Position numbers and translations under genes: made by a program
The notes under the pieces: generated by a model
What the model was told of the DNA's origin: nothing
Database searches by the model: none
The model's input: the letters and a program-made list of their open reading frames with translations, nothing else
Assembly: GCA_964016885.1 (NCBI GenBank)
Contig: OZ024766.1
Coordinates: 17,980,001-18,044,000 of the forward strand
Length of the DNA: 64,000 nt
Origin: Eledone cirrhosa
Lineage: Eukaryota
Direction of reading: 5' to 3'
In this document: piece after piece, positions 17,261-63,781 of the stretch
How the letters are laid out: every line of letters starts with the position of its first letter
Position numbering within the stretch: position 1 is the stretch's first letter

Positions 17261-17348
17261 GAATCTTTGAACAAACTCATGAAAAATTTGTACAGCACAC
17301 ATCCACATTTTGTGCGTTGTATTATCCCCAACGAATTCAAACAGCCAG
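17261..17348 (+). CDS. Mhc: Mhc mutually exclusive exon, variant a ([29 protein letters not shown])
   Basis: ctag|GAA...CCA G|gtaaat; 88 nt, phase 0-1. Confidence 0.94.
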
Positions 17349-18256
17349 GTAAATTTACCCTATTGAGTACTGACAGCACTAAAGATCCTTTCCTGCAGAC
17401 CGGCACCAGTGCGCCGCCGCTGCATTTTTGCCTGTCTCCTCCGAGTCTTACCAGTGTCTTGTATATGCTGGTTTGGTTTGCAGTGCTGTGCAGTAGAGTG
17501 AACCCCCCACTCTTTTCCTCCTCCCTCACCTGTCTTTTTAATTTTTTTTTTTTTTCAGTGAAATCTAATACAACCTAACCTGAACCTAACCTGAACCTAA
17601 TCTGAACCTAATCGAACCTAATCGAATTTAATCAAAATATTATCGAACCGAGCCCGGTGAAAGATTGTTCTGTCTAACATTTTAGTAAAAAAAAAATATA
17701 TATATAATTAATCATTAATTAAAAAATTATTTAATACCCTGTTTGGTTTTTACATAACTACAGTTATATATATATATAATATATATATATAATTATATAT
17801 ATTATAAATATATTATATATATTATAAATATATTATATATATTATAAATATATTATATATATTATAAATATATTATAAATATATTATAAATATATTATAT
17901 ATATATTATATATATATTATAAATATATTATATATATTATAAATATATTATATATATATATATATTATAAATATATTATAAATATATTATATATATATTA
18001 TAAATATATTATAAATATATTATAAATATATTATAAATATATTATAAATATATTATAAATATATTATAAATATATTATAAATATATTATATATATATTAT
18101 AAATATATTATAAATATATTATATATATTATAAATATATTATATATATTATAAATATATTATATATATATTATAAATATATTATATATATATATTATAAA
18201 TATATTATATATATATTATAAATATATTATATATATATATTATATATATATTTTAA

Positions 18257-21425: not shown

Positions 21426-21513
21426 GAATCACTTAACAAACTGATGACACACCTCAGGTCAACAAACCCCCATTTTGTACGTTGCATTGTGCCCAATGAG
21501 AAAAAAGCTCCAG
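21426..21513 (+). CDS. Mhc: Mhc mutually exclusive exon, variant b ([29 protein letters not shown])
   Basis: gtag|GAA...CCA G|gtaaga; 88 nt, same phase as variant a; absent from the + strand ORF track. Confidence 0.92.
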
Positions 21514-22240
21514 GTAAGACTGAAAAAAAAATAAAAATTAAAAAAAACCGAAACGCTAAACGTGAAAAATAAAATTCTAAAACGCTATGGGATTCTTTTT
21601 TAAATTGCTACGAAAAAATTTTAAATTGCTACGAAAAAATTTTAAAATGCTACGAAAAACTTTTAAATTGCTACGAACAACTTTTAAATTGTTACGAGAA
21701 AATTTTAAATTGCTATGAAAAAAGTTTTAAATGCTATGGAAAATGTTTTAAATTGGTATGGAGAAAGTTTTAAATTGCTATGAAAAAAATTTTAATTGCT
21801 ATGAAAAAATGTTTTTCAAAATTTGTAAAAATAAAAACATTTTTAAAACGCTATGAAAAATTTTTTTAAAGGGGTAGTAAAAAATTTTTTTTTGGTGGGG
21901 GGGAATATATGAAAAGAAATGGGTGAATATACAATAAAATAATGCAAAATAAACGTAGAAGGGATTTCAACGGGGTCTGTTTGATTTTAGCGACCCATTG
22001 TAGAAATAAAAAGAGAAAGTCTTGCAAAGGCAGTATTTACCTTTAGCGTCGCACGCTCTTTCTATATAGCATTTCAAACAAATTTAACGGGGTCTGGTTG
22101 ACTTTAGCGTCGCACGCTCTTACTATATAGCATTTCAAACAAATTTAACGGGGTCTGGTTGACTTTAGCGTCGCACGCTCTTTCTATATAGCATTTCAAA
22201 CAAATTTAACGGGTGTCTGGTTGAGTTTAGCGACCAAATG

Positions 22241-31024: not shown

Positions 31025-31115
31025 GAAGGACATGGAAATCAACGGACTGAACTCTAAACTCGAAGACGAACAAAGCCTTGTTGCCCAATTGCAAAAGAAG
31101 ATCAAGGAACTCCAG
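31025..31115 (+). CDS. Mhc: Mhc S2 exon ([30 protein letters not shown])
   Basis: acag|G AAG...CAG|gtaagt; 91 nt, phase 2-0. Confidence 0.95.
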
Positions 31116-31221
31116 GTAAGTCCATTCGATATGCTAAAATGGCCGCTGCTTATATCTGCACTATATCCACCATAATTACTGCTTGCCCGATTTGCAGCAA
31201 TACTGCATATCGTGCGACACA

Positions 31222-31264
<43 letters not shown>

Positions 31265-31317
31265 ACACAACCGCACTGCTGAAATGCAAAGCAACACAAA
31301 CTTCACGTGAATGTATG

Positions 31318-31359
<42 letters not shown>

Positions 31360-31446
31360 CATTGACAAATGCATGCTACACAAATATACCAAAAAATAGC
31401 GTCATAGATCCACACACATATATTTATATATGTACACATAATCCTG

Positions 31447-31481
<35 letters not shown>

Positions 31482-31620
31482 TGTATATATAATACATATG
31501 TGTGGGTATAATACTAGTAATATATACACTTTTTTTTAACACCATTGCCATTGTATTTTGCTATGAAAAAAAATACATTCCAGGTTCGCCTTTTGACAAC
31601 CGACAACTTTATATATACAC

Positions 31621-31666
<46 letters not shown>

Positions 31667-31714
31667 TGAGTGTATATAACGACTGACCAACAAATATGCT
31701 TCTTAAATAAATAT

Positions 31715-31757
<43 letters not shown>

Positions 31758-31915
31758 CTGTTGATGGCTTGGTTAGGGAGGTAGGGGAAATTTTGAAGAT
31801 CTGAGCTTCTTTTCTTGTGTCGTCTGCAATATACGTTGTTTTATGCTTAACGCTAAAATCTTTGATAAAATCTCATTGCTTCTTTAGCAAAAAACGATAC
31901 TTCTGCACATATACG

Positions 31916-31955
<40 letters not shown>

Positions 31956-32555
31956 CATATATATTATATATATGTATATATGTATATATATATATATATG
32001 TATATATATATACATATATATTATATATATGTATATATGTATATATATATATATATATCTATATATGTATATATATATGTATATATATATTGGGTCGTCA
32101 AGTATGTCACTTGTAGAGATTTGTTCTTTTTTCTACAAATATCTACAAATTTCATATTGACGATTAAATATATATATATATATGCATATATATATACACA
32201 TATAAGTATATATATGTATATGTATATATATCTATGTATATGTATATATGTATATATATATATATGTATATATATGTATATTCATTGGCTTATAATCTAT
32301 ATACACAATCATTTTCTTGCTTGCACTTTTCTATCTTTCTTTCTTTCTGCTTCTACTTTATACATACATGCACATATATATATATATGTGTGTGTATATA
32401 TATGTCTTTATAGTTAGAGATTATAGTCTGCACACAATTTCTACGCACGGCACTAAATTGTTTACTTTGTATATATATATACATACGTACGTACGTACGT
32501 ACGTATATACATTTATACTTATACATACATATATACGTACACACACACACACATA

Positions 32556-32589
<34 letters not shown>

Positions 32590-32950
32590 TACATATATAT
32601 ATATATACACATATAAGTATATATATATATATGTATATGTATATATATCTATGTATATATGTATATATGTATATGTATATTCATTGGCTTATAATCTATA
32701 TACACAATCATTTTCTTGCTTGCACTTTTCTATCTTTCTTTCTTTCTGCTTCTACTTTATACATACATGCACATATATATATATATGTGTGTGTGTATAT
32801 ATATGTCTTTATAGTTAGAGATTATAGTCTGCACACAATTTCTACGCACGGCACTAAATTGTTTACTTTGTATATATATATACATACGTACGTACGTACA
32901 TATATACATTTATACTTATACATACATATATACGTACACACACACACATA

Positions 32951-32988
<38 letters not shown>

Positions 32989-33017
32989 TACATATCTATA
33001 CATGCCTAAATTACCTC

Positions 33018-33993
33018 CCCCATCACCACCACGACCATCATCATCACCACCATCACCACCACGACCACCATCACCACCACGACCATCATCATCACCACCA
33101 CCACGACCATCATCATCACCACCAACACCACCACCATCACCACCACGACCACCATCACCACCACGACCACCATCACCACCACCACCATCAACACCACCAC
33201 TATCAATACCACCACCATCACCACCACGACCACCATCACCACCACGACCACCATCATCATCACCACCAACACCACCACCATCACCACCACGACCACCATC
33301 ATCATCACCACCACCACGACCACCATCACCACCACGACCATCATCAACACCACCATAAACACCAACACCACCACTACCACCACCATCAACACCACCATAA
33401 ACACACCTCCATCAACACCACCACCATCAATACCACCACCACCACCACCACCACCATCGCCACCATCAACACCACCAACACCACCACTATCAACACCACC
33501 ACCAACGCCACCACCACCATCAACACCACCATCACCACCATCAACACCACCACCTCCATCAACACCACCACAACCATCAACACCACCACCATCACCATCA
33601 ACACCACCACCATCACCACCATAAACACACCACCATCACCACCACCACCATCAACACCACCACTATCAATACCACCACCAACACCACCACCACCATCAAC
33701 ACCACCACCAACGCCACCACCACCATCAACACCACCTCCACCATCATCACCACCATCACCACCATCAACACCACCACCTCCATCAACACCACCACCACCA
33801 CCATCAACACCACCACCACCACCATCACCACCACCATCACCACCATCAACACCACCACCACCACCATCACCACCACCATCACCACCACAACCATCACCAC
33901 CATCACCACCACCACCATCATCACCACCACCATCACCACCACCATCAACACCATCACCACCACCACCATCTCCACCATCACCACCACCACCAC
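33018..33993. repeat. (CAC/CAT/GAC)n degenerate trinucleotide array
   Basis: Direct inspection. Confidence 0.92.
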
Positions 33994-34180
33994 CTTTCCC
34001 TGTGAACCTGTGACAAAAAAAAACAAACACACCGATCGAACTCCAATCAGACGTTGACATAATCAATAAATATTGATTATCGATCTACATAGAAATATCA
34101 ATAAATTCTTTCAAATATGTATTTTTCAATTTTCTTTCTTTATCTTCTTCCACTTCTATTATTCTCATATATACACAGTA

Positions 34181-34227
<47 letters not shown>

Positions 34228-34329
34228 CCTCGAGCCAATTATTTGTGAAACACGTGTAACGTTCTATATAACATTTTAAAGTGCGACATCGTCATCTCAT
34301 ATGTAATATATACGGATAGTAGATATACT

Positions 34330-34371
<42 letters not shown>

Positions 34372-34400
34372 CACACGTATGTATGTATATATACATATAT

Positions 34401-34447
<47 letters not shown>

Positions 34448-34907
34448 TATATATATTAGTTATATATATTGGGTCGTCAAGTATGTAATTTGTAGAGATT
34501 TATTCTTTTTTCTACAAATATCTACAAATTTCATATTGATGATTAAATATATATATATGTATATATATATACACATATATGTATATATGTGTATATATAA
34601 CTAATAAGCTCCGAAACCTACATTGAGCACTCTTTTTTCCTGGACCTTTCCGACGGAATTACTTCATTCATACATATATGTATATATATATGTATATATA
34701 TATGTATATATATATGTATATATGTATATGTATATGTATATATATATGTATATATGTATATATATGTATATATATATATATGTAGAAGTTCTATTTAAAT
34801 TGTTGGGATACAACAAGCAAATATTTTTATAACTGATATAAAGCACTCAACAAATAATTGGAGTTTAAAATAGGATATTAACAAATGGAAACTATATTTA
34901 TAAAACC

Positions 34908-34983
34908 ATATTTATTTCATTATACATATTTCAAGGACACCAAGTTAAATTATGGTGCGCTTTCATCAGATAAAATATAATAT
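34908..34983 (-). ncRNA. Hammerhead ribozyme motif, diverged family member
   Basis: rc: tattttat CTGATGA aagcgcacca..tggtgtcctt GAAA tatgtata atgaaata; compensatory changes relative to the 8.5 kb copy. Confidence 0.65.
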
Positions 34984-35053
34984 AGATCAGTTTTATAAAT
35001 AAATATTGACATACCCTTAAAGAATGCAACCATTACTGTTGGAAGCTCCCGGG

Positions 35054-35172
<119 letters not shown>

Positions 35173-35378
35173 TTAGTTATACTATTTATGGTTATGTAAA
35201 TACAAAACCTTATGCAGTTATAAGTATTTTTTATACACACCCTAAATAGTGGTAGGCAGTAATGTATTACTACCTTATATAACTGTCCATGCATTAATAA
35301 ATTGCTCCGAAGAATCCAAACCTCGGTTTGGAGGAAACAGCTGTAAGCACAATAATGTTTTGAACAGTTCTTTGATTC

Positions 35379-35410
<32 letters not shown>

Positions 35411-35575
35411 AATTTATTAAAATAACAGATTAAAGTTTAAGCAAATATATTGTATATATATATATATATATATACAATATATTAATAAATTGAAATTATA
35501 GTAACTTGTTGAGTGCTTTATATCAGTTATAAACGTTTAAGCTTGTTGGAATCCTAACAAATTAAATATAACTTC

Positions 35576-35614
<39 letters not shown>

Positions 35615-35763
35615 TAACGAAGGAAATGTGGTAAGGAACCAGGTGGACCATAACGCAACAAAGTACTCAATACTTGGGGTAGTAGAGTGGGTAATAGGAA
35701 CCAGTAAGACCCCGAATTAGCCGTCGAAACGGCTTGAGCTCAGCCGTCGGGGTCTTACTGGTT

Positions 35764-35807
<44 letters not shown>

Positions 35808-35864
35808 CGTGCATACATATATATCTAGAGAAAGATATTGATATATATATAGAGAGATATATAT

Positions 35865-35897
<33 letters not shown>

Positions 35898-36424
35898 AGG
35901 GAGAGCTCAGTGTGATAGAGAGAGAGAAGGGAGAGAGCTCAGTGTGATAGAGAGAGAAGGGAGAGAGCTCAGTGTGATAGAGAGAGAAGGGAGAGAGCTC
36001 AGTGTGATAGAGAGAGAGGGGGGAGAGAAAGAGAGAGATTCTGCTATCGTTTGTCTAAATATGGATAAGAATTCTTCCAATTTTCAAGGATGAGTCGGTG
36101 TGGTGGTGGTGGTGGTGGGGTGTTTAGTGACTGACTGGTGGTGGTGGTGGTGGGGTATTTAGTGGCTGACTGGTGGTGGTGGTGGTAGGGATTGCATTGG
36201 GTGGAGTTAGGGTGGAGTTGGGGTGGGGTTGGCTTGTTGTAGTAATGGTGGTGGTGGTGGTGGTGTTGGCTTGTTGTAGTAATGGTGGTGGTGGTGGTGG
36301 TGTTGGCTTATTATAGTAATGGTAGTGGTGGTGGTGGTGGTGTCAGCGAAGCATGGCTGAGAATGATGTGGTGGGGAAAGATGTGAGATCAAACAAATTG
36401 AGATAATAAAAAAAAACGTGTATA

Positions 36425-36458
<34 letters not shown>

Positions 36459-36680
36459 CGTATATACATATATATATATACATATATATGTATATATATA
36501 TGTATGTATATATATGTTTATATATATATACATATACATATATATGTATATACATATATATATATATACGTATATACATATATATATATGTATACATATA
36601 TGTATATATATGTATATACATATATATATATATATGTATATATATATGTATACATATATATATATATACGTATATACATA

Positions 36681-36738
<58 letters not shown>

Positions 36739-36756
36739 CATATATATAAGACCAGG

Positions 36757-36806
<50 letters not shown>

Positions 36807-36807
36807 C

Positions 36808-36857
<50 letters not shown>

Positions 36858-37179
36858 GTATATATATACACATATATATATAAAGTAAAAAAGGGTTAAG
36901 GTCATGAGATAAGCGAAAGAGAGAGTGTGAGGGGGGGGGGGGGTAGGAAGTAGCCCCTATCCACCCACCCACGCCTCAACCCTCACCCTGGTCCCCTTTT
37001 TTATTTCTAGTTCTTCCCTGCTCCCTTCCCTCCCTCCACCTAATAAGAACTAACATCTGAGGGTATGTAGGTAAAACATACGAGGAAGGTGTGGTGTGGT
37101 GGAGTGGCGTAGCGGCGAGGGGATTGGTGGTGGTGTGATAGGTGGAACGCTAGAAACGTGTGGCACCTGACAGCCAGAA

Positions 37180-37230
<51 letters not shown>

Positions 37231-37495
37231 TAGAACCTGCCTTGTTTACAATTTAGTATATACATATATATATATATATATGTATATAGATAGATGTGTA
37301 TATATATATATATATATATATACACAGATAGATGTGTATATATATCTATATATAAACAGATAGGTGTGTATATATATATATATATATATATACAGATAGA
37401 TGTGTATATATATATATATCTATATATAAAATATATATATATATATATATATACAGATAGATGTGTGTATATATATAAATATATACAGATAGATG

Positions 37496-37531
<36 letters not shown>

Positions 37532-37534
37532 TAG

Positions 37535-37579
<45 letters not shown>

Positions 37580-37582
37580 TAG

Positions 37583-37615
<33 letters not shown>

Positions 37616-37622
37616 CAGATAG

Positions 37623-37655
<33 letters not shown>

Positions 37656-37696
37656 CAGATAGATGTGTATATATATATATATATATATACAGATAG

Positions 37697-37733
<37 letters not shown>

Positions 37734-37739
37734 CAGATA

Positions 37740-37785
<46 letters not shown>

Positions 37786-37859
37786 AATGTATATATACAC
37801 ACAAATAGATGTATATATATATATATATACACAAATGTATATATACACACAAATAGATG

Positions 37860-37906
<47 letters not shown>

Positions 37907-38332
37907 CATCGGTGTTTATATTTGACTAACGAATTCCATAGTGCTTAGATGAGAAAAACGGATAGCTTATACCTAACAGCACCCACCTCTGCCTCTGTTA
38001 TCCCCACCACCAAAACCCGTACCCCCACAGACACCCCACCACCACCACCACCACTAGACCACCATATATGAGCGTTGGGTCTGTGCTTTGAATCAGTATT
38101 AGTAAGTTAGTAATATAGTTGGGCAGTTGGTTACGCATTTCGAGTAGTATTTGGTTTAACTCTCCTTTTAACTTTGAAATGCAAGCGCACCAGAAAAATT
38201 AATCATCTTCAAGTATGTAAGTTGCTTTGGTGAGGTTAGCTGATGACGTGATCACGTGATCAGGTGATCTAACTCTCTGTTTAGTCTGAAATACTACAGA
38301 CATGACCCAGACAAAAATACACATGCACACAC

Positions 38333-38394
<62 letters not shown>

Positions 38395-38408
38395 GTGTGT
38401 GTCTGTCT

Positions 38409-38445
<37 letters not shown>

Positions 38446-38461
38446 CATATCTGTGTGTCTG

Positions 38462-38515
<54 letters not shown>

Positions 38516-38538
38516 TATAAATAAATATATACAGACAG

Positions 38539-38589
<51 letters not shown>

Positions 38590-38648
38590 TTTAAATATAT
38601 ATATATATATATAAATAAATATAAATATATATATAAATAAATATATAT

Positions 38649-38713
<65 letters not shown>

Positions 38714-38739
38714 AATATATATATAAATATATATATATA

Positions 38740-38823
<84 letters not shown>

Positions 38824-38847
38824 AATATATATAAATATATATATATA

Positions 38848-38893
<46 letters not shown>

Positions 38894-38900
38894 TATAAAT

Positions 38901-38937
<37 letters not shown>

Positions 38938-39011
38938 AATATATATATGTATATATATATATATATATATAAATATATATATGTATATATATATATATAT
39001 ATATAAATATA

Positions 39012-39061
<50 letters not shown>

Positions 39062-39077
39062 TATAAATATATATATG

Positions 39078-39156
<79 letters not shown>

Positions 39157-39591
39157 TGGTTTAAAAAGCTAGTCGAAGAAAATTGGTACAGCGCCGTCTG
39201 TATCTTACTTATAATTACCTCAACGATATAATAGCTTTTGTACGTACGTTATATATACTAACCTATTACCCGGATTGCACGCATACGTTATGCAGTAAGA
39301 TAAAAGACTACGTGTGTGGTTATATATATATATATATATGTATATATATAGTGCTCTTCTAAGTAGCAGCAGGACCACGTTCGACCCTAAATCTCCAAAT
39401 ATGTGCTATGTCTGTGGTTTGCATCAAGTTTAGTATGTTAGTTAGTAAGTTAGTTGGTTAGTTGATTGGTTGGTTGGCTGATTACGTGCTTCACCTCACC
39501 GTTTATTTTTAAATACTAGCAGCAGGAAAATAAAGCCAACTATATATATATATATACACACATATATATATATACACATATATATATATAT

Positions 39592-39649
<58 letters not shown>

Positions 39650-39706
39650 ATATATGTATATATATATATATATATATACACACACATACATATATGAGTG
39701 TATATA

Positions 39707-39738
<32 letters not shown>

Positions 39739-39748
39739 CACATACACA

Positions 39749-39808
<60 letters not shown>

Positions 39809-39813
39809 CACAC

Positions 39814-39850
<37 letters not shown>

Positions 39851-39851
39851 C

Positions 39852-39966
<115 letters not shown>

Positions 39967-39971
39967 CACAC

Positions 39972-40058
<87 letters not shown>

Positions 40059-40379
40059 TATATATATGTATCTAAGATGGTTTAACTCCCCGTTTATTTT
40101 GATATACTATCAACACAGTGGAGAAAAGTTGGGTAGTTTAAAATACAGAAGGAATGAGAAGGGGGGAGTAGAGGGTAAGGATGAGGAGGGGGGGAAGAAA
40201 AATAAATATTTTGAAAGAAACAACAATAGCGTAAAAAAAAAATGGAAGATACACAACATTTTTGTTGTGCAAGTCAGACTTCAGACGCTAAGAGCTGCTT
40301 ATGCAGTTAACCATTTTTAGTGTTGTAAACTCTTGGGTATCTACGCGTCTATATATATATACATATATATGTATATATT

Positions 40380-40534
<155 letters not shown>

Positions 40535-41201
40535 AAATATATATATTTATATATATATATAAATATATATATTTATATATATATATAAATATATATATTT
40601 ATACATATATATATATATTTATATATATATATAAATATATATATTTATATATATATATTTATATATATATATATTTATATATATATACATATATTTATAT
40701 ATATATTTATATATATATATTTATATGTATATGTATATATAGATATATATGTGTGTGTGAGTGTGTATATAAATATACATACATGACTAGATAAATCGTA
40801 AACAGTGTTCTTTTATATTATTTTACTCAAGTGGTAACTAGTATTATCGTGTGCCAACAATTATTCTTTGTGTATACATACATGTATATATATATATATA
40901 TACACACTTATATATATACACACTTATATATAAACGCTTATATATATATATATACACACTTATATATATACGCTTATATATATATATATATATATATACG
41001 CTTATATATATATATATATACGCTTATATATATATACATCTGTTACCAATTCCACAGTTTCTTAGAGAATATTCTAGATTTCATACCTGTCGGTCTATTT
41101 TGTAAATAAAAGAATAGAATATATATTTTTTTTAGATTATACACACGTACGTGTCTAAATATCTACACACTCTATATATACATACATACATACATACACA
41201 C

Positions 41202-41319
<118 letters not shown>

Positions 41320-42179
41320 TATGCCTTAAAAGTCTCAACCAATTTTCATTCTTTCGACTTTTTTCTTCTTCCGCGTCTGGTTCTCCCACCCACTCCACCA
41401 TACACCACCACCCACACCACTGCCAACAACAACAACAGCAGCAATAAATTCCTTCAACTTTCCATTCTCCACCTCCGCCGCCACCATCTCTAAATTCTTT
41501 CATCTTCGTCATCGTAGTAGTAGTAGTAGTAGTAGTAGTGGGTTGTGGTGGTGTTGGGAGTGGTGGGGTTCTTTTTTTGGCATCTTGTATCTTCTGCTAT
41601 CGCCTTTCCACCGCCGCCACCAACACCAACACCACCGCCATTATCTCTTCTGCATTCTTCCGCCATTACCACCACCACCACCACCACCACCACCTTCTTG
41701 AACGTCTGCAATCTCTTAAAAAAAACAATCTCCGACACCACCACCGCCGCTGACGCCGCCACCGTCAACTCTTCTTCTCGTCTGCAATCGCTTTCCTTCG
41801 CCGCCGCCACCACCGCCACCACCACCACCACCACCATCTCGTGATCTGCTATGCCGTTACATCTTACAGCACCCACCCACACGCACACACACCCAGCACC
41901 CACATACCCCCCCCCCCCAGCATAGCATAGCCAAGCCTAGCCTACCTTTGTACTCCCCCCACACACACACACGCACGCACGCACCCTCCCCCGTCATACT
42001 TTACCTGTCTACAGCTCACAAGGCCACCCACCCACCCACCCACCCACCGACGCCCCCACCCTGCCTCCTGCCCTGCCCTACCTGTCTTTACCCAGCCAAG
42101 TATGGTAACAACTTCACTATTAGAAAATATTAGCAACAACAACAGCAACAACAACAACAGCAACAATAATAATGAAGGC

Positions 42180-42385
42180 CCCCCCCCCTCTCAAAAAACC
42201 CTTCAACACGTTCGCCTTCCGGGTTAACTTAGCTTAGATAGCAGCCGTATACCGACAGGGCGAGGTAGGGCTGCGATAGGAGAGGAAGAGGGGACTGAGA
42301 ACGACATTGAGCAGCCAAGTGCAGGCATAGAGATAGCAACAGGGAAGAGGAAGAAAGAAAAAAAAGAAACATTCCCCAAGTTCAT

Positions 42386-42419
<34 letters not shown>

Positions 42420-43707
42420 AAGTAGCGAAACTATTTGAGCGCATGCGCGAAGATAACAATCATAAGCAGATGAAGAAGAAGACGAGGGTGAAGAGGGAGA
42501 TGAGGATAAGTCGGCAACGCTTCGAAATATTTGGTTCTGTTTCAAGATTTTTTTCTAGAAAATTAGAAGACATATATATCTCGTGTATAATATAAAATAT
42601 AATATACACACACATATATATATACACACATATATATATATTTATATATATACAGACACATATATATATCACGTATATATATTATATGTGTGCAGCGCTG
42701 TCGAGTATTCCCTCACTCGGCGTTCAGTCTTCAAGACTTCAACAGTAGTAATAACGAAAGCAGCAGCTACTATAACAACAACAACAAAGCTTTTACACAA
42801 GCAACAACGTTATTTATTAAACATTTCAAAAGCAACCTCAAGATCTCCCTCACTGTCTTCCATAAAACCAAACCAAACCAAACCAAACAGAACCGGTTTT
42901 GAATTTAAATAAAAGGAAGAAGAATTTATGATAAATAATTTATAGTTTCTGTTCTTAAGTTTCGTTGAAAAAGAAGAGAAAAACTTAATAATAGTAGTTG
43001 AAAACCTCCTCCGTTCAGCCTACACCGGATTTAAACCACAAATGATTTGAAACTTTATAGTACTACTACAACTGCTACTGCTACTATTACTACTGCTGCT
43101 ACTACTGTTGTTCCTTCCACTCCTACTTGGCAAGCAGCGGAACATAAAAATTATTATTTTTATTTTTATTATTATTATTATTATTATTAATAATAGTATT
43201 TTTGGCTGTGAACAGTTTTTGTTTTTTTTGAGGAAAAATTCTTCAAACGGAACTTATACGAAACTTCTATTACTACTACTACTACAACAAACAACCTTGT
43301 CTGCTTTGAAGCACTGGCTTTTACTACTACTACTGCTACTGCTACTATTTCATCAGCAACAACAACAATAAAATAACACGACAATTGAATCACGTGGTGG
43401 ATTACTTTATATTCTGCATACAGTTTATTCTGCGGGACATACCCCTGTCTTCAGCTGTTGAGAAAAGATCTCAGTTTCGATACATGTTTAAATTTTTATA
43501 CAATACACTGTTGCATTGCTGAGAAATAGCATATTCGGTGGAGAAAAAAAATATAGAATTGTTTACACAAACCGGAAGGAATTATACACGGAACTCGTAA
43601 CTTCCGCTTCTTGTTCTCTCACATTTTCGGCATACCTTTTGTCTCACTTCCTTGTATGTATATATAGATACCCCCTACACACACACCCGTATATTTTTTA
43701 TACACAC

Positions 43708-43738
<31 letters not shown>

Positions 43739-44064
43739 GCTTGTACGTCGGTAAATTCCTCTATAGAGTAGAGGCGTATTTTTTATTTTTTATTTTTGAA
43801 ATTCCACGTCACTTGGCTTATATTTGTATCATCAGCAAGCAGTTAGCAACTTGTTCAGTTCACTTCTTTCGACTCAACAAGCAACACCACACCTCACAGC
43901 TGGCGTTGATCTCCTCTCAGCTCGGGATAAATTATTTTAGAGGACATACACAGACACAAAGAAGGAATTAAACTGATTTAATAATCATTATTCTACTTTC
44001 TACATAAATATATTCTTATATATTTATTATTTGAGATTTATAACTCCTTCGTTAACTGAATTTC
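42180..44064 (+). promoter_or_regulatory. Candidate internal promoter / 5' UTR of the catchin-like transcript
   Basis: Unique, relatively CpG-rich sequence upstream of the alternative first exon; perfect GCGCATGCGC palindrome at 42439-42448; Inr-like TCAGTY at 42724 and 43855; no ATG between 43860 and 44064. Confidence 0.45.
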
Positions 44065-44778
44065 ATGGAGTCTACCGAACAGAACCACGTTCCACAACAG
44101 GAAGTTGCTACAAGTGAACAACAGCCACCACCTCCGCCTTCCGAAACACAAGTACAGGTTCCGCCAGCAGCAGCAGCAGCCCCTGCTCCAGCAGTTATTC
44201 AGGAAGCTACTCAGGCAATCCCCCCAAGGCCGGCTTCACCACCGCCTCCTCCCGTGGCATCTCCACAGGTACAACAGCCGTCACAGCCAGTTCAAAGCCA
44301 GCCTCCTTACCACCAACAACAGCAAGCAGTGACAGCACCTTCACAGGAATACCATAAAGAACAGGAATACTCCAAACAACAACACCACCACCACCAACCA
44401 CAGCCTCAGCAATATAGCACTCTCGAGCCACCGTCTTCTTCTTCCTCTTACAACCCTCACCCACACTCTCACTCGAAGACCTCTCGGGAAGGTTCCAGAT
44501 CGCGAGAATACGGTTCTTCGTCGTCTTATTCTCAGCGACCTTACACCTCTCGTCTGACGCCAAACCGTTCCATGGATTTCTCTGATATTCTCGGAAGTAT
44601 GAGTCGCGAATTTCGTGGAACAAGCCCGGCTGTCTTGGAGAACATCTCCTGCCACCCTCTGCTCTACAAGACTTACGATATGCCAGTCAATCCGAAGCTT
44701 AGCGCCCGTTCTAAAAAAATAATACGTGACGCATCCGAACTTGGTCAGTTTTCGCCCGGATTAAAAAGTCTACTTGAA
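44065..44778 (+). CDS. Alternative first coding exon of a headless myosin-rod isoform (catchin/myorod-like N-terminal domain, 238 aa)
   Basis: ATG-initiated, non-microsatellite 238-codon ORF (P/Q/S-rich, then DFSDILGSMSREFRGTSPAVLE...GLKSLLE) ending at a phase-0 donor GAA|gtatgt; the next exon (ARIEELEEE) is phase 0; position fits the bivalve catchin junction. Confidence 0.88.
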
Positions 44779-44822
44779 GTATGTTAAATTAATCAATTCC
44801 TTCTTTTATTCATTTGTATGAT

Positions 44823-45045
44823 TAGTGAAGGCGCGTGGCCGAGTGGTTAGAGAATTGGATTCGCAATCGTAAGGTTGTGAGTTCGATTCCTCGACCAGGC
44901 GATGCGTTATGTCCTTGAGCAGGACACTTTATTTCACGTTGCTCCTTCTACCTGGAGTTGTGACTCATAGATAGTATTAGCAATTGGAAAGACCAACGGA
45001 AACATTGTTCCCTCGGTCCGATTTGACGAAAGTCGATCGTTCTTC
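44823..45045 (+). mobile_element. tRNA-derived SINE; its 3' part is duplicated at 45546-45648
   Basis: A-box tggccgagtgg at 44836, B-box gttcgattcc at 44881, CORE-like segment. Confidence 0.85.
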
Positions 45046-45200
45046 TAAATATACATGTATACATATATAATTATATATACATATACGTATATAATTATAT
45101 ATACATGTATACATATATAATTATATATACATATACGTATATAATTATATATACATGTATACATATATATATATATAAATATGTATATATATAAATATGC

Positions 45201-45231
<31 letters not shown>

Positions 45232-45262
45232 TATAAATATGTATATATATATATATATATAA

Positions 45263-45303
<41 letters not shown>

Positions 45304-45442
45304 TATATACATGCATATAAATATATATATATATATATATACACATATATATACATGCATATAAATATATATATATATATACACATATATATATACATGC
45401 ATATAAATATATATATATATATATACACACATATATATATAC

Positions 45443-45497
<55 letters not shown>

Positions 45498-45931
45498 TAG
45501 TTATATATACATGCATATAAATATATATATATATATATATTATTATTCTACCTGGAGTTGCAACTGATAGATAGTACTAGCAAATGGAAAGACCAACGGA
45601 AACATTGTTCCCTCGGTCCGATTTGACGAAAAGTCGATCGTTCCTATGATTAGTTAGCTAATTACGTAGTTAAATAACTAGTTATTTCGTGATTTAGTAA
45701 TTTAGTATATTCAGTATACGATCATCATCATCATCGCCATTATTATTATCATCAGCATAATCTTTTTTAATCTTACACATTATTATTATCGTCATCAACA
45801 TCATCATCCTTTTATGCCTGATTTATATCTATATATATCTCTCTCTAGATATATATTCTATATTCTATTGTGTATATATATTTATTTATTCATATATATA
45901 TATATATAGATATACTATTGTATATATATAT

Positions 45932-45967
<36 letters not shown>

Positions 45968-45987
45968 TATTGTATATATATTATATA

Positions 45988-46028
<41 letters not shown>

Positions 46029-46070
46029 TATTGTATATATATTATATATATATATATATATACTATTGTA

Positions 46071-46105
<35 letters not shown>

Positions 46106-46113
46106 CTATTGTA

Positions 46114-46148
<35 letters not shown>

Positions 46149-46247
46149 CTATTGTATATATATTATATTATATATATATATATATATACTATTGTATATA
46201 TATTATATTATATATATATATATATATATATACTATTGTATATATAT

Positions 46248-46285
<38 letters not shown>

Positions 46286-46338
46286 TAGTACCAGTAATAC
46301 ACTGGGATAATTGCTGGCCTCGTGCCTATTGTAGAAAC

Positions 46339-46372
<34 letters not shown>

Positions 46373-47854
46373 TATTGTATATATATATATGTTCTATTGT
46401 ATATACATATATATGTGTGTATATATATATATATAAAGCCACCAGCGTCTGTCGAACGTCTGTTCCAACACCTGAACGCCTGAAAACGTCTTCTCCGCCC
46501 CATCCCAAATACCTGTTACACACCTGTTACACACCTTCACGTCTGCTAAACATCTGGCCAGATTTGTTATCAACAACAATCTATTGTCTGCACCACATCT
46601 GTTTCACACCTGCCCAGCATTCCCACCCCAATATCTGCTGCTAGACATCGTGTTTTTTGCTAAGACATTAGCTACCTACCCTCTACTATACCCAAAGATT
46701 CTCAGCCCATATGCAACATCTTCCTCTACCAAAAACCGATCCGGAACATTGTCAATATTTGATCAAATTCCATCGTTAAATTCTTGAGAAAATCTGACCA
46801 AAATCGGGCCGAAATCTGGTCGACATCTGGTTAAAATCTCGCCAAGATCTGATCAACATCTGGCTAATAATTGGACGAAATCTAACCGAGATCTTCTTCT
46901 AACACCAGGCCTACATTCTAGTTAATACATAAGGGAAACTCTTCGCTAAATTTGGCCGAAAACTTAGCTAAGATTTAGTCAAAATATGACAAACTCCTTT
47001 CCTCAAAATTGAATCCCCAAAAAGGGAAAATCTTCCGACATCTGGCCAAAATCTAGCCAGAATCTTTCCTCGATTCTTCTCCAAATTTGTGCACAAAATC
47101 TAGCCCAAAATTTTGGCAACATTTAGTTAAGATTTAGCCAAGATTTCACGAAGTCCTTTCCAAAAAATGTTGCTTACATAAAGGTCATATAATCTTTCTA
47201 TATTTGGCTTGAATCTCCTCAAAAGCTTTGCACAAAATCTAGTTAGAATTTAGACAACATTTAGTTAAGGCTCAACCAAAATTTGACATAGCTCTTCCCA
47301 CAATATTTAGCTAAGACTTAACCAAAATTTAACATATTCCTTCCCACAAAATTTAGCTAAGACTCAACCAAAATTTGACATAGCTCTTCCCACAACATTT
47401 AGCTCACATCAAGGGCATATCATTTTTCTATATCTTGCTCAAATTTAGTCAAAATATTTTCCAAAAACATTTACAATCTTCAGCACAAGATCCAACTACG
47501 ATTTAACTAAGATTTTAGACAAAATCTGAGGAAAATTTCCCTTCATTATGTAACCCAAAATAGAACATTCCTATCCAATGTTGTCCATAATAAAAAAAAT
47601 GTCCAAATTTTTCCCTAATTTCTGGCTAAAATCCAGCTGAATTGTGATGTAATGTAGCCGAAATTTAGCAAAGATTTGGTAAAAATGTTGACAAACTTTC
47701 AATATTTACCCCTATTCAAGGTCGTATGTTCTAGCAAGATCTCGCTCAAGTCTCGACCATTATTACAACGATTAACCACAATGTAATGTAACTTCCTGTT
47801 TGTTAATTTGTTAAACGACACAGACTACCCATATATTTATATATATATGCATGC

Positions 47855-47910
<56 letters not shown>

Positions 47911-47945
47911 GATATTAAACAAATGGAAACTATATTTATAAAACC

Positions 47946-48022
47946 ATATTTATTTCGTTATATATATTTCTGGGATACCATATTAAAAATATGGTATGCC
48001 TTCCTCAGACAAAATACAATAT
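47946..48022 (-). ncRNA. Hammerhead ribozyme motif, family member (10.1-11.1 mismatch, probably impaired)
   Basis: rc: tattttgt CTGAGGA aggcatacca..tggtatccca GAAA tatatata acgaaata. Confidence 0.55.
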
Positions 48023-48204
48023 ATAAGCTGTTTTATAAATAATTTTGACATACCTTAGAATAATGCAACTTCCATTTAAAAAGTTGATTTAAAAAGTTGA
48101 TTTGTTTAATATCGTAAACCTACTCCAAAAACTGTTGAGTGCTTTTATATCAGTTATAAAATATTTACTCGTTGTAACCCAACAATTTTAAATAAATCTT
48201 TTGC

Positions 48205-48235
<31 letters not shown>

Positions 48236-48512
48236 TATATATACACATATATATATATACACATATATATATATATACACATATATATATATATACACAT
48301 ATATATACGTATACACATATATATATATATACACATATATATATATATACACATATATATATATACACACATATATATATATACACACATATATATATAT
48401 ACACACATATATATATATACACATATATATATATACACATATATATATACACACATATATATATACACACATATATATATACACACATATATATATACAC
48501 ACATATATATAT

Positions 48513-48630
<118 letters not shown>

Positions 48631-48813
48631 GTCTTTGATTGAGTTGGGTCGGGCCTGGTGGAGAGTTAAACTGACATACTTGGGTTTACAATGGCGGACT
48701 TGACTTTGGAAATACTTTGACTTTTTTTATGAGTCGAACCTGGAATGTTTTTATTTATTAGTGAACAAATTACACACACACACATATATATATATATATA
48801 CATATATATATAC

Positions 48814-48894
<81 letters not shown>

Positions 48895-49011
48895 GTACTA
48901 TGTAATACAATTTATATACAACTTACAAATGTTCATATAAAATATATATATAATTTTATATAAATATACATACGTATATACATATAGATATGTATATCCA
49001 TGCTTATATGA

Positions 49012-49052
<41 letters not shown>

Positions 49053-49328
49053 CATATATATATATACTATATTTATACATATATATATATTTATACATAT
49101 ATATATATATATATTTATACATATATATATATATATATATTTATACATATATATATATACTATATTTATACATATATATATATATATACTATATTTATAC
49201 ATATATATATATATATATATTTATACATATATATATATACTATATTTATACATATATATATATATATATACTATATTAATACATATATATATATATACTA
49301 TATTAATACATATATATATACTATATTT

Positions 49329-49359
<31 letters not shown>

Positions 49360-49366
49360 CTATATT

Positions 49367-49405
<39 letters not shown>

Positions 49406-49567
49406 ACACATACAACTATATATATATTTATATATATATATATACACACATACACACATACAACTATATATATATTTATATATACACACATACACACATA
49501 CAACTATATATATATACAATTAACGTAATGGAGACATAACAAATCGTATTTTTTATTATTATATACA

Positions 49568-49601
<34 letters not shown>

Positions 49602-49658
49602 CATTTATATATACATTTTACTATACACACATTTTCTTTTCTTCTCACCTTATTCTAG

Positions 49659-49715
49659 GCTAGAATTGAGGAACTTGAAGAGGAATTAGAAGCCGAACGC
49701 CAAGCCAGAACTAAG
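49659..49715 (+). CDS. Mhc: Mhc/catchin shared rod exon (ARIEELEEELEAERQARTK)
   Basis: ctag|GCT...AAG|gtaagt; 57 nt; too short for the ORF track. Confidence 0.95.
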
Positions 49716-50089
49716 GTAAGTCTGCACCACCATCATTACCACCACCTTCCAATATTTACCATTTTATCCTTACATTTTACCCCTATTTACGAAAACCATT
49801 GATGGCTTCTGACTCCTGAAACATTTTAGTACAACTTTCATCAAAATTGTTTCCTCGTTATCGACCCTTTCATTAAATATGTCAACATTTCTTCCCCTAA
49901 TATTTACCATTTTATCCTTACACAGACCCCTATTTACGAAAACCATTGATGGCTTCTGACTCCTGAAACATTTTAGTACAACTTTCGTCCAAATTGTTTC
50001 CTCGTTATCGACCCTTTCATTAAATATGTCAACATTTCTTCCCCTAATATTTACCATTTTACCGTTTTTACCATTTCATAATCTTCTAA

Positions 50090-52795
50090 TTTACGAAAAC
50101 CCTTGATAGTATCTGGTTCCTTAAAGAATTTAATAAACCTTTCATCCAAAATACTTTCTCAAACTTTCTATAAATATATCTACACCTCTTTCAGCCAGTT
50201 TTTACCAAATACCATTAAGCAAGCCCTAGGACCCTGAATTTACGAAAACCCTTGATAGTATCTGGTTCCTTAAAGAATTTAATAAACCTTTCATCCAAAA
50301 TACTTCCTCAAACTTTCTATCAATATATCTACACCATTTTCAGCCAGTTTTTACCAAATACCATTAAGCAAGCCCTAGGACCCTGAATTTACGAAAACCC
50401 TTGATAGTATCTGGTTCCCTAAAGAATTTAATAAACCTTTCATCCAAAATACTTCCTCAAACTTTCTATAAATATATCTACACCTCTTTCAGCCAGTTTT
50501 TACCAAATACCATTAAGCAAGCCCTAGGACCCTGAATTTACGAAAACCCTTGATAGTATCTGGTTCCTTAAAGAATTTAATAAACCTTTCATCCAAAATA
50601 CTTCCTCAAACTTTCTATAAATATATCTACACCATTTTCAGCCAGTTTTTACCAAATACCATTAAGCAAGCCCTAGGACCCTGAATTTACGAAAACCCTT
50701 GATAGTATCTGGTTCCTTAAAGAATTTAATAAACCTTTCATCCAAAATACTTCCTCAAACTTTCTATCAATATATCTACACCATTTTCAGCCAGTTTTTA
50801 CCAAATACCATTAAGCAAGCCCTAGGACCCTGAATTTACGAAAACCCTTGATAGTATCTGGTTCCCTAAAGAATTTAATAAACCTTTCATCCAAAATACT
50901 TCCTCAAACTTTCTATAAATATATCTACACCATTTTCAGCCAGTTTTTACCAAATACCATTAAGCAAGCCCTAGGACCCTGAATTTACGAAAACCCTTGA
51001 TAGTATCTGGTTCCCTAAAGAATTTAATAAACCTTTCATCCAAAATACTTCCTCAAACTTTCTATAAATATATCTACACCATTTTCAGCCAGTTTTTACC
51101 AAATACCATTAAGCAAGCCCTAGGACCCTGAATTTACGAAAACCCTTGATAGTATCTGGTTCCTTAAAGAATTTAATAAACCTTTCATCCAAAATACTTC
51201 CTCAAACTTTCTATAAATATATCTACACCATTTTCAGCCAGTTTTTACCAAATACCATTAAGCAAGCCCTAGGACCCTGAATTTACGAAAACCCTTGATA
51301 GTATCTGGTTCCTTAAAGAATTTAATAAACCTTTCATCCAAAATACTTCCTCAAACTTTCTATAAATATATCTACACCATTTTCAGCCAGTTTTTACCAA
51401 ATACCATTAAGCAAGCCCTAGGACCCTGAATTTACGAAAACCCTTGATAGTATCTGGTTCCTTAAAGAATTTAATAAACCTTTCATCCAAAATACTTCCT
51501 CAAACTTTCTATCAATATATCTACACCATTTTCAGCCAGTTTTTACCAAATACCATTAAGCAAGCCCTAGGACCCTGAATTTACGAAAACCCTTGATAGT
51601 ATCTGGTTCCCTAAAGAATTTAATAAACCTTTCATCCAAAATACTTCCTCAAACTTTCTATCAATATATCTACACCATTTTCAGCCAGTTTTTACCAAAT
51701 ACCATTAAGCAAGCCCTAGGACCCTGAATTTACGAAAACCCTTGATAGTATCTGGTTCCTTAAAGAATTTAATAAACCTTTCATCCAAAATACTTCCTCA
51801 AACTTTCTATCAATATATCTACACCATTTTCAGCCAATTTTTACCAAATACCATTAAGCAAGCCCTAGGACCCTGAATTTACGAAAACCCTTGATAGTAT
51901 CTGGTTCCCTAAAGAATTTAATAAACCTTTCATCCAAAATACTTCCTCAAACTTTCTATCAATATATCTACACCATTTTCAGCCAATTTTTACCAAATAC
52001 CATTACGCAAGCCCTAGGACCCTGAATTTACGAAAACCCTTGATAGTATCTGGTTCCTTAAAGAATTTAATAAACCTTTCATCCAAAATACTTCCTCAAA
52101 CTTTCTATCAATATATCTACACCATTTTCAGCCAGTTTTTACCAAATACCATTAAGCAAGCCCTAGGACCCTGAATTTACGAAAACCCTTGATAGTATCT
52201 GGTTCCTTAAAGAATTTAATAAACCTTTCATCCAAAATACTTCCTCAAACTTTCTATAAATATATCTACACCATTTTCAGCCAATTTTTACCAAATACCA
52301 TTACGCAAGCCCTAGGACCCTGAATTTACGAAAACCCTTGATAGTATCTGGTTCCTTAAAGAATTTAATAAACCTTTCATCCAAAATACTTTCTCAAACT
52401 TTCTATAAATATATCTACACCTCTTTCAGCCAGTTTTTACCAAATACCATTAAGCAAGCCCTAGGACCCTGAATTTACGAAAACCCTTGATAGTATCTGG
52501 TTCCTTAAAGAATTTAATAAACCTTTCATCCAAAATACTTTCTCAAACTTTCTATAAATATATCTACACCTCTTTCAGCCAGTTTTTACCAAATACCATT
52601 AAGCAAGCCCTAGGACCCTGAATTTACGAAAACCCTTGATAGTATCTGGTTCCTTAAAGAATTTAATAAACCTTTCATCCAAAATACTTCCTCAAACTTT
52701 CTATCAATATATCTACACCTCTTTCAGCCAGTTTTTACCAAATACCATTAAGCAAACCATAGGACCCTGAATTTACGAAAACCCTTGATAGCGCT
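50090..52795. repeat. 149-150 bp satellite array (about 18 near-identical copies)
   Basis: tttacgaaaacccttgatagtatctggttcc...ccctaggaccctgaa unit. Confidence 0.95.
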
Positions 52796-54086: not shown

Positions 54087-54173
54087 GTTGAGAAACAACG
54101 TACCGAACTAAACCGTGAACTTGAAGAATTAGGAGAACGCCTTGATGAAGCTGGTGGTGCTACAGCCGCCCAG
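54087..54173 (+). CDS. Mhc: Mhc rod exon ([29 protein letters not shown])
   Basis: gcag|GTT...CAG|gtatga; 87 nt. Confidence 0.95.
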
Positions 54174-55321: not shown

Positions 55322-55488
55322 ATGGAACTCAACAAGAAACGTGAACAAGAACTCCTCCGATTGCGTCGTGATCTTGAAGAAGGAACTATGCAACACGAGG
55401 CCCAGATTTCTCAACTCCGTAAGAAGAACAACGAAGCCACCACTGAACTCTCAGACCAAATCGACCAACTCCAAAAAGTCAAGAGCCG
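55322..55488 (+). CDS. Mhc: Mhc rod exon ([20 protein letters not shown]...QKVKS)
   Basis: gcag|ATG...AGC CG|gtaagc; 167 nt, phase 0-2. Confidence 0.95.
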
Positions 55489-57140: not shown

Positions 57141-57676
57141 TATTTCAGCCTTGAAACAGGAGAGATGTCACGCTCTCAGCTCGCTCCCTTTTCTCTCACA
57201 CTCACACTCACACCTTCTGCCTCAGCCCCCACTCGCGCTCTCACTCACGAGTCACACTCCACTCCACTTTTATTTCAGCCTTGAAACAGGAGAGATGTCA
57301 CGCTCCCAGCTCGCTCCCTTTTCTCTCACACTCACACTCACACCTTCTGCCTCAGACCCCACTCGCGCTCTCACTCACGAGTCACACTCCACTCCACTTT
57401 TATTTCAGCCTTGAAACAGGAGAGATGTCACGCTCCCAGCTCGCTCCCTTTTCTCTCACACTCACACTCACACCTTCTGCCTCAGCCCCCACTCGCGCTC
57501 TCACTCACGAGTCACACTCCACTCCACTTTTATTTCAGCCTTGAAACAGGAGAGATGTCACGCTCCCAGCTCGCTCCCTTTTCTCTCACACTCACATTCA
57601 CACCTTCTGCCTCAGACCCCACTCGCGCTCTCACTCACGAGTCACACTCCACTCCACTTTTATTTCAGCCTTGAAA
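57141..57676. repeat. 130 bp tandem repeat (4 copies) containing the hinge exon a acceptor
   Basis: tatttcagccttgaaa at 57141, 57271, 57401, 57531 and 57661. Confidence 0.92.
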
Positions 57677-57747
57677 AGGAAAAATCTCAACTCCGAGGCG
57701 AGGCTGATGACCTCCAAAGTCAACTTGAACATGTTGGCAAAAACAGG
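57669..57747 (+). CDS. Mhc: Mhc S2/LMM hinge mutually exclusive exon a (LEKEKSQLRGEADDLQSQLEHVGKNR)
   Basis: tcag|C CTT...AGG|gtaaat; 79 nt, phase 2-0. Confidence 0.92.
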
Positions 57748-59149: not shown

Positions 59150-59228
59150 ACTAGAAAAAGAAAAACAGGAATTGAAAGAGCGAAATGAAGAGGTCTTGAT
59201 TGACATGAAACAGCGTGAAAAAATGATG
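59150..59228 (+). CDS. Mhc: Mhc S2/LMM hinge mutually exclusive exon b ([26 protein letters not shown])
   Basis: gctaac branch point, pyrimidine tract, gcag|A CTA...ATG|gtaaaa; 79 nt with identical phase to exon a and shared LEKEK start. Confidence 0.88.
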
Positions 59229-63535: not shown

Positions 63536-63781
63536 GGATGTTCCGACAAGATGAGCAAACAGATGGAAGCCCAGCTCGCCGAACTCAACGCCAAGATCGA
63601 CGAACAAGCCAGATCTGTAAGCGAACTCACTTCGCAGAAGTCCAGGCTGCAAGGCGAGAGCGCTGATCTCACCAGGCAACTGGAAGAGGCAGAACACAAC
63701 GTTGGTCAACTGTCCAAGATCAAGAACAACCTTAGCCATCAACTCGAGGAAGCCAAACGTAGCGGTGAAGATGAGGGCAGA
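63536..63781 (+). CDS. Mhc: Mhc LMM exon (GCSDKMSKQMEAQLAELNAKIDEQ...EDEGR); the gene continues beyond the window
   Basis: gtag|GGA...AGA|gtaagt; 246 nt. Confidence 0.94.

Follow-up and report, generated by a model that had tools for sequence, protein, structure and literature searches.

Catchin, also known as myorod, was described in the bivalves Mytilus galloprovincialis and Argopecten irradians (Yamada et al. 2000, as cited in the accessible portions of PMC3912159, PMC12040844 and PMC4410989), where it arises from an alternative 5' exon of the muscle myosin heavy chain gene (Mhc). The functional data on the protein all come from mussel and from work in vitro. According to the available parts of two papers, mussel myorod is found at the surface of the thick filament in an abundance equal to that of myosin, it has paramyosin, myosin, twitchin and F-actin as partners in vitro, and its phosphorylation at Thr141 leads to higher myosin ATPase activity in co-filaments (PMC4410989, PMC12040844). 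The same excerpts restrict it to the catch muscle of bivalves, a third source, likewise available in part, reports it as enriched in scallop catch muscle (PMC5963113), and a fourth excerpt places it in the striated larval retractors of oyster (PMC13762225). Kollmar and Hatje (2014) identified the catchin exon in the gastropods Aplysia, Biomphalaria and Lottia; the cases named in the available text are Lottia gigantea Mhc6, Aplysia californica Mhc1, Biomphalaria glabrata Mhc1 and Mhc2 of the oyster Crassostrea gigas, and the genome table of that study, in the form accessible, contains no cephalopod (PMC3912159). The same text describes Mhc8 of L. gigantea, which encodes a headless rod with the same start position, yet is a separate gene that lacks the unique N-terminal exon. 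It also covers Drosophila MRP (Standiford et al. 1997, as cited in PMC3912159), which has an alternative start and a 5' extension of the first exon past the light-chain domain, is ~260 residues longer, and has an N-terminus that is unconserved even among the Diptera. We found no report of a cephalopod catchin or myorod in the literature within reach, subscription papers and current genome annotations being outside it; on catch in cephalopod muscle, the accessible text of the review PMC5430041 holds no passage beyond a reference. We provisionally regard a cephalopod catchin exon as unreported.

The DNA described here, a stretch of 64,000 nucleotides referred to as the window, covers the middle of a muscle Mhc gene on the + strand and corresponds to residues ~217-1320 of an abalone MHC query (tblastn). 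Of 84 residues compared in the converter/lever segment, 76 are identical in PDB 3i5f and 69 in the next entry (differences counted from the printed alignments). The entry is named 'Myosin heavy chain isoform A' and we take it to be squid myosin; because its match exceeds that of the next entry, the host animal is likely to be a cephalopod, in support of the host proposed in the preliminary description of this DNA, and we infer that it is an octopod. The last exon specific to the full-length heavy chain (31025..31115, S2 region) ends at the donor CAG/GTAAGT and would compete with the catchin exon for its acceptor. In alignments with abalone MHC (tblastn), residues 1078-1108 precede the intron that follows and residues 1109-1128 come after it; since the exons that end at 31115 and start at 49659 encode the consecutive residues 1108 and 1109, the host intron of the full-length transcript (31116..49658) measures 18,543 bp. 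It is closed by the acceptor ttctag/GCT in phase 0, and the 57-nt exon that begins there (49659..49715) is the first shared rod exon, serving as acceptor for full-length MHC and, by prediction, for catchin. Downstream of it, at ~49770-52770 (+), lies a tandem array whose repeat period is ~149 nt, and a search of the host intron for Rfam families gave 0 matches.

Shared rod exons continue at 54087..54173, 55322..55488, 57669..57747 and 63536..63781, all on the + strand, the last of them reaching MHC residue ~1320 before the gene passes out of the window; about 210 residues of the shared rod are thus encoded inside the window and the remainder of the 3' part lies beyond it. The exon at 57669..57747 (79 nt) encodes the hinge region and is probably one of two mutually exclusive exons, the probable alternative being an exon of 79 nt and equal phase at 59150..59228 (+). 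Each begins with LEKEK. The first is identical at 14-19 of 26 positions to the corresponding hinge in heavy chains from other molluscs and the second at only 6-8 of 26, with a weaker donor (GTAAAA). They probably represent the cluster-11 mutually exclusive pair in the accessible text of PMC3912159 and, because they sit in the part of the gene that catchin shares, catchin could exist in two hinge forms. Two other exons are present in tandem copies on the + strand, one for residues ~217-246 in the switch-1 region (65-154 and 2493-2609) and one for motor-domain residues ~650-679, just past loop 2 (ESLNKLM..., at 17261-17350 and 21426-21515); each is probably a mutually exclusive pair.

The host intron contains an ORF of 238 stop-free codons (44065..44778, +) that starts with ATG, ends at a phase-0 donor, GAA/GTATGT, and agrees in reading frame with the exon of the rod that begins at 49659. 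The frame has no room to extend upstream, being closed by an in-frame TAA whose last base is 44055 and which is separated from the ATG by 9 nt. Any open + frame was recovered across this ORF segment in 6 of 20,000 base shuffles, and the seven other ORFs of at least 40 aa that run from an ATG to a phase-0 donor in the intron (eight in all) are read-throughs of TA/TG microsatellites. What the preliminary description had said of the coordinates, the 238 codons, the donor phase and the composition was correct in every particular. We interpret the ORF, from its structure and its homology, as the coding part of a catchin/myorod-type alternative first exon. The first intron of the predicted catchin transcript would be 4,880 bp long (44779..49658, +, GT..AG, phase 0). 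On the upstream side, the 320 nt before the ATG (43745..44064, +) hold no other ATG, a run equalled in 49 of 10,000 shuffles in a window that has 20 ATG-free gaps of at least 400 nt, which hints at a putative 5' leader of an internal transcript. A scan for CArG, MEF2 and E-box motifs gave no muscle-promoter signature, and 43000-44065 contains no CArG box.

The exon belongs to a family whose members could be compared in some detail. Two gap-free blocks of its product (residues 174-201 and 211-238) were aligned by eye with Fig. S3 of PMC3912159 and are identical to Lottia Mhc6b at 43/56 positions, to Mytilus at 36/56 and to scallop at 33/56. In that figure the Lottia, Mytilus and scallop catchins pass into the rod sequence at the residue where we place the junction. 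Lottia, with a unique domain of 205 residues by our own count, is thus the closest named sequence seen. The ORF resembles the Mytilus and Argopecten catchins in being an alternative 5' exon of a muscle Mhc gene, in its junction residue, in its core and in its possession of a low-complexity arm; it differs from Mytilus in the length of the unique domain (238 aa against 156 aa) and in having a Q/P-rich rather than a T/S/K-rich arm, and from both in that those catchins are bivalve proteins while the host here is a likely cephalopod. The gastropod and Crassostrea exons are the same exon at the same position, the host intron here being one of 18.5 kb.

A wider set of relatives was assembled from 12 of 96 scored candidates and 26 library matches which, after the removal of two long low-complexity sequences (P0044 and P0045), gave 29 distinct ORFs, all called on unspliced sequence, and an alignment of 30 rows with the protein from the window. 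The last 68 residues of that protein are identical to the homologues at 30-65 positions and the first 170 at only 9-89. Eight core positions are invariant in 30/30 rows. Directly after the last conserved residue, 28 of the 29 homologues have Val and one has Ile, and the sequences diverge beyond that point; the ORFs therefore appear to read through a conserved GT donor, the DNA having been checked for one locus, L001. This locus was the one confirmed among 85 pattern matches in a metagenome collection and lies on a mollusc-like contig. Its layout is like that in the window, with an exon of 176 codons, the donor GAA/GTACAG and a 972-bp intron followed by the same 57-nt rod exon. In 51 codons compared between the two loci, 33 first, 42 second and 18 third positions are identical, and synonymous differences affect 17 of the 32 conserved residues, a codon pattern that indicates constraint at the protein level. 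In a tree of the core that has few firm branches (4 of 26 inner branches are starred), four homologues (P0002-P0005) group with the protein from the window with 100/99 support and 54-65/68 identity; they are presumably other coleoids, and their grouping indicates that the exon has been kept in close relatives. The most divergent rows, P0041-P0043, may extend the family beyond the known classes of animal.

These observations support orthology with the catchin/myorod first exon rather than mere resemblance. The ORF is an alternative 5' exon of a muscle Mhc gene placed within the intron before the catchin-joining rod exon, it encodes a unique N-terminal domain homologous to that of bivalve catchin, and it has its own ATG and a phase-0 donor directly past the core, in frame with the rod. 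The view that this is a first exon of catchin/myorod type was therefore borne out, and a comparison of the last ~70 residues with molluscan catchin N-termini, suggested as a check, revealed clear similarity in named proteins and in the 29 homologous ORFs alike. The likening of the locus to Drosophila MRP holds in part. MRP is an analogue, not a homologue: unlike the first-exon extension of the fly gene, the window has a separate exon that joins at MHC residue ~1109, well into S2, so the start point differs, and the N-termini are unrelated (PMC3912159, accessible text).

The protein encoded by the ORF has two very different parts. The arm, residues 1-170 (44065..44574, +), is of low complexity and poorly conserved, with 23% Q, 22% P and 12% A in residues 1-120 and 34% S in the S/R-rich residues 121-170, and it is predicted to be disordered: AlphaFold2, run with the 30-row alignment, gave no secondary structure in residues 1-171 (block pLDDT 45-69). 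The conserved core, residues 171-238 (44575..44778, +), is predicted to form short helices at 172-182, 188-195, 214-229 and 233-237, most blocks having pLDDT 85-94 in a model with a whole-chain pTM of 0.26; a model of the core alone had a mean pLDDT of 78 and a pTM of 0.41. The core is thus predicted to consist of local helices without a confident tertiary fold. A PDB profile search with the catchin domain found no solved relative, its only match being to low-complexity TonB sequence (E 0.041), and an ESM Atlas search gave no usable match. The best Z score in a fold search with the domain model was 3.0 among 48,161 chains, and a Foldseek search with the core-only model (pTM 0.41) had no match at E <= 0.001, results that show neither a new fold nor a known one. 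Pfam returned 0 families for five proteins, the catchin core included, and a new domain family could be built from the 30-row alignment. The unique domain is longer than that of Mytilus, as the preliminary description had it, and the extra length lies entirely in the arm, but 238 aa is not exceptional, being third of 30 in a family range of 109-259 with a median of 186.5 (starts as called on ORFs).

The 30-row alignment also bears on the much-studied phosphorylation site of mussel myorod. We located Thr141 by counting along the Mytilus sequence shown in Fig. S3 of PMC3912159, which has 156 residues to the junction, in agreement with the published length; the equivalent residue here, numbered by eye from the text of that figure, is Ala223 (44731..44733, +). 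The corresponding column has Ala in 18, Thr in 10 and Ser in 2 of the 30 rows, and scallop catchin also has Ala there (Fig. S3 of PMC3912159), so Thr141 does not define the family. Any phospho-switch residue in the protein from the window must differ from that of mussel, since Thr141 is replaced by Ala223. Ser213 and Ser216 are invariant, Ser187 is present in 29/30 rows and Ser224 adjoins Ala223; given this conservation, these four serines are better candidates for a switch. The alignment thus moves attention from an unconserved threonine (Thr in 10/30) to other, invariant serines.

Evidence for the transcript was sought in assembled reads and in proteins. The contigs of four sequencing runs, from one study, show no 44778>49659 junction over 43000-45030, a region in which repeats kept them from spanning the intron. 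In three runs from one sample (X1-X3), which may be the one that the window itself came from, the contigs cross the donor to 44852-44854 with 0-1 differences. The fourth (X4), a run of no recorded library type that was found with the stretch itself, gave one contig, 43745-44758, which ends 20 nt before the donor, and among the rows listed for it there is no junction or loose end at 44778. A very high-copy repeat (44823-45030, +) starts 45 nt past the catchin donor with a contig depth ~5 x 10^5 times single copy in X1-X3, and its 5' part resembles, by eye, the head of a tRNA-derived SINE. The ratio of SINE depth to exon depth on the contigs is ~90 in X4 as against 3.7-5.1 x 10^5 in X1-X3; this would fit an RNA library, yet we did not count it as a sign of one, because it comes from one study and a run of unrecorded library type with no junction among the rows listed. 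No full-length spliced catchin occurs in 237 protein candidates of 418-2000 aa, from which Mytilus catchin, a known case, is also absent. The best 21 of 257 matches in a search with the rod exon were gastropod and bivalve heavy chains, with no cephalopod among the matches listed, and no member of ~1,000 aa was present among the members listed in ten of the gastropod/bivalve heavy-chain clusters.

We consider it about two chances in three that the exon gives rise to a motorless rod that acts as a general structural or regulatory component of the thick filament, a reading that does not amount to proof of catch. It has to be weighed against the proposal that the exon is a relic, silent or in decay, and has ceased to be spliced to the rod. 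The junction was not seen, on contigs unable to span the intron, and the promoter signature was not found; against this, a 714-nt open frame with a canonical donor persists inside an AT-rich, repeat-filled intron, its divergence is biased to synonymous change, and the nearest relative retains 65/68 identity in the core while the arm has drifted to 89/170. Decay of that sort seems extremely improbable. Another use of the same frame would leave it unspliced, as a stand-alone protein of 240 residues closed by the TAA at 44785-44787, two codons into the intron, or would include part of it as a cassette in full-length myosin through one of four internal phase-0 AGs with pyrimidine-rich tracts (44269, 44479, 44536 and 44671). 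We regard this as very improbable: the homologues diverge directly past the donor, with tails that vary from 2 to >90 residues, most of them retain the initiator Met and the long arm, in the published forms from bivalves and gastropods the rod follows at this point (PMC3912159), and a non-helical insert of 80-170 residues would be expected to break the S2 coiled coil. Even jointly, the relic and the other uses of the frame are quite improbable.

A further alternative accepts the exon and its protein and assigns them specifically to an ancestral molluscan catch-like holding in cephalopod smooth or tonic fibres, such as those of the skin papillae. Cuttlefish papillae hold tension without neural input, contain smooth muscle and react to FMRFamide, acetylcholine and serotonin as bivalve catch muscle does, according to the available text of PMC6059360, which has no mention of catchin or myorod and leaves open whether the mechanism is shared with bivalves. 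The strong conservation of the core in close relatives of the window agrees with such a role, and the enrichment of catchin in scallop catch muscle (PMC5963113), with its description as catch-specific (PMC12040844, PMC4410989), favours a catch-linked over a general role. However, the established catch tether is twitchin, not catchin, in the accessible text of PMC5963113 and PMC6059360, and Thr141 is absent here. Moreover, the exon is found in gastropods and the protein in striated larval muscle of oyster (available portions of PMC3912159 and PMC13762225), so that catchin is not confined to catch muscle. In the part available of PMC12419884, the layers of the octopus arm are described as obliquely striated throughout, with no smooth muscle, and catch is considered improbable in that tissue. 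The preliminary description, which took cephalopods to be without classical catch, overlooks the catch-like holding of cuttlefish papillae, and the arm muscle in which, with sucker muscle, it placed a possible tuning of stiffness or holding is reported to lack smooth fibres. An exclusively catch-like role is, in our judgement, rather unlikely. On a bolder proposal, cephalopods would have retained the catch toolkit of bivalves: smooth or tonic fibres marked by catchin would keep skin papillae, and perhaps suckers, locked with no neural drive. Such holding would be homologous to bivalve catch instead of having a separate evolutionary origin, and would work through a phospho-site other than Thr141. 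We regard this proposal as unlikely.

For the preferred reading, that of a general thick-filament component, a mechanism can be proposed. The exon would be transcribed from an internal promoter upstream of 44065 and spliced 44778>49659. In related heavy chains of molluscs in which the junction motif occurs, 820-859 residues lie past the junction, so with the 238 residues of the unique domain the predicted product would have ~1,060-1,100 residues, made up of that domain, distal S2, the hinge and the entire filament-forming tail, without a motor or light-chain sites. By extension from mussel biochemistry, the rod would dimerise and assemble on the paramyosin core through a tail identical to that of myosin, and would displace motor-bearing myosin from the filament surface, diluting the motors. 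Its N-terminal domain may point to the thin filament, and the helical core, which is basic, could there bind actin or modulate myosin ATPase activity in response to phosphorylation.

The catchin family and its exon are known from bivalves and gastropods, and the cephalopod is an added member. The surprise of a catchin outside the bivalves is smaller than had been stated, given that the presence of the exon could be predicted from the gastropod data of 2014 (PMC3912159, accessible text). An intact and constrained exon in a cephalopod, taken with the gastropod cases, nevertheless indicates that the exon was present before bivalves, gastropods and cephalopods diverged. The cephalopod and gastropod exons argue for a broader role in the thick filament and against the view in recent reviews that catchin serves bivalve catch only. 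A probe or antigen specific to this exon would also bring the papillae within reach, allowing one to ask whether cephalopod holding and bivalve catch have machinery in common.
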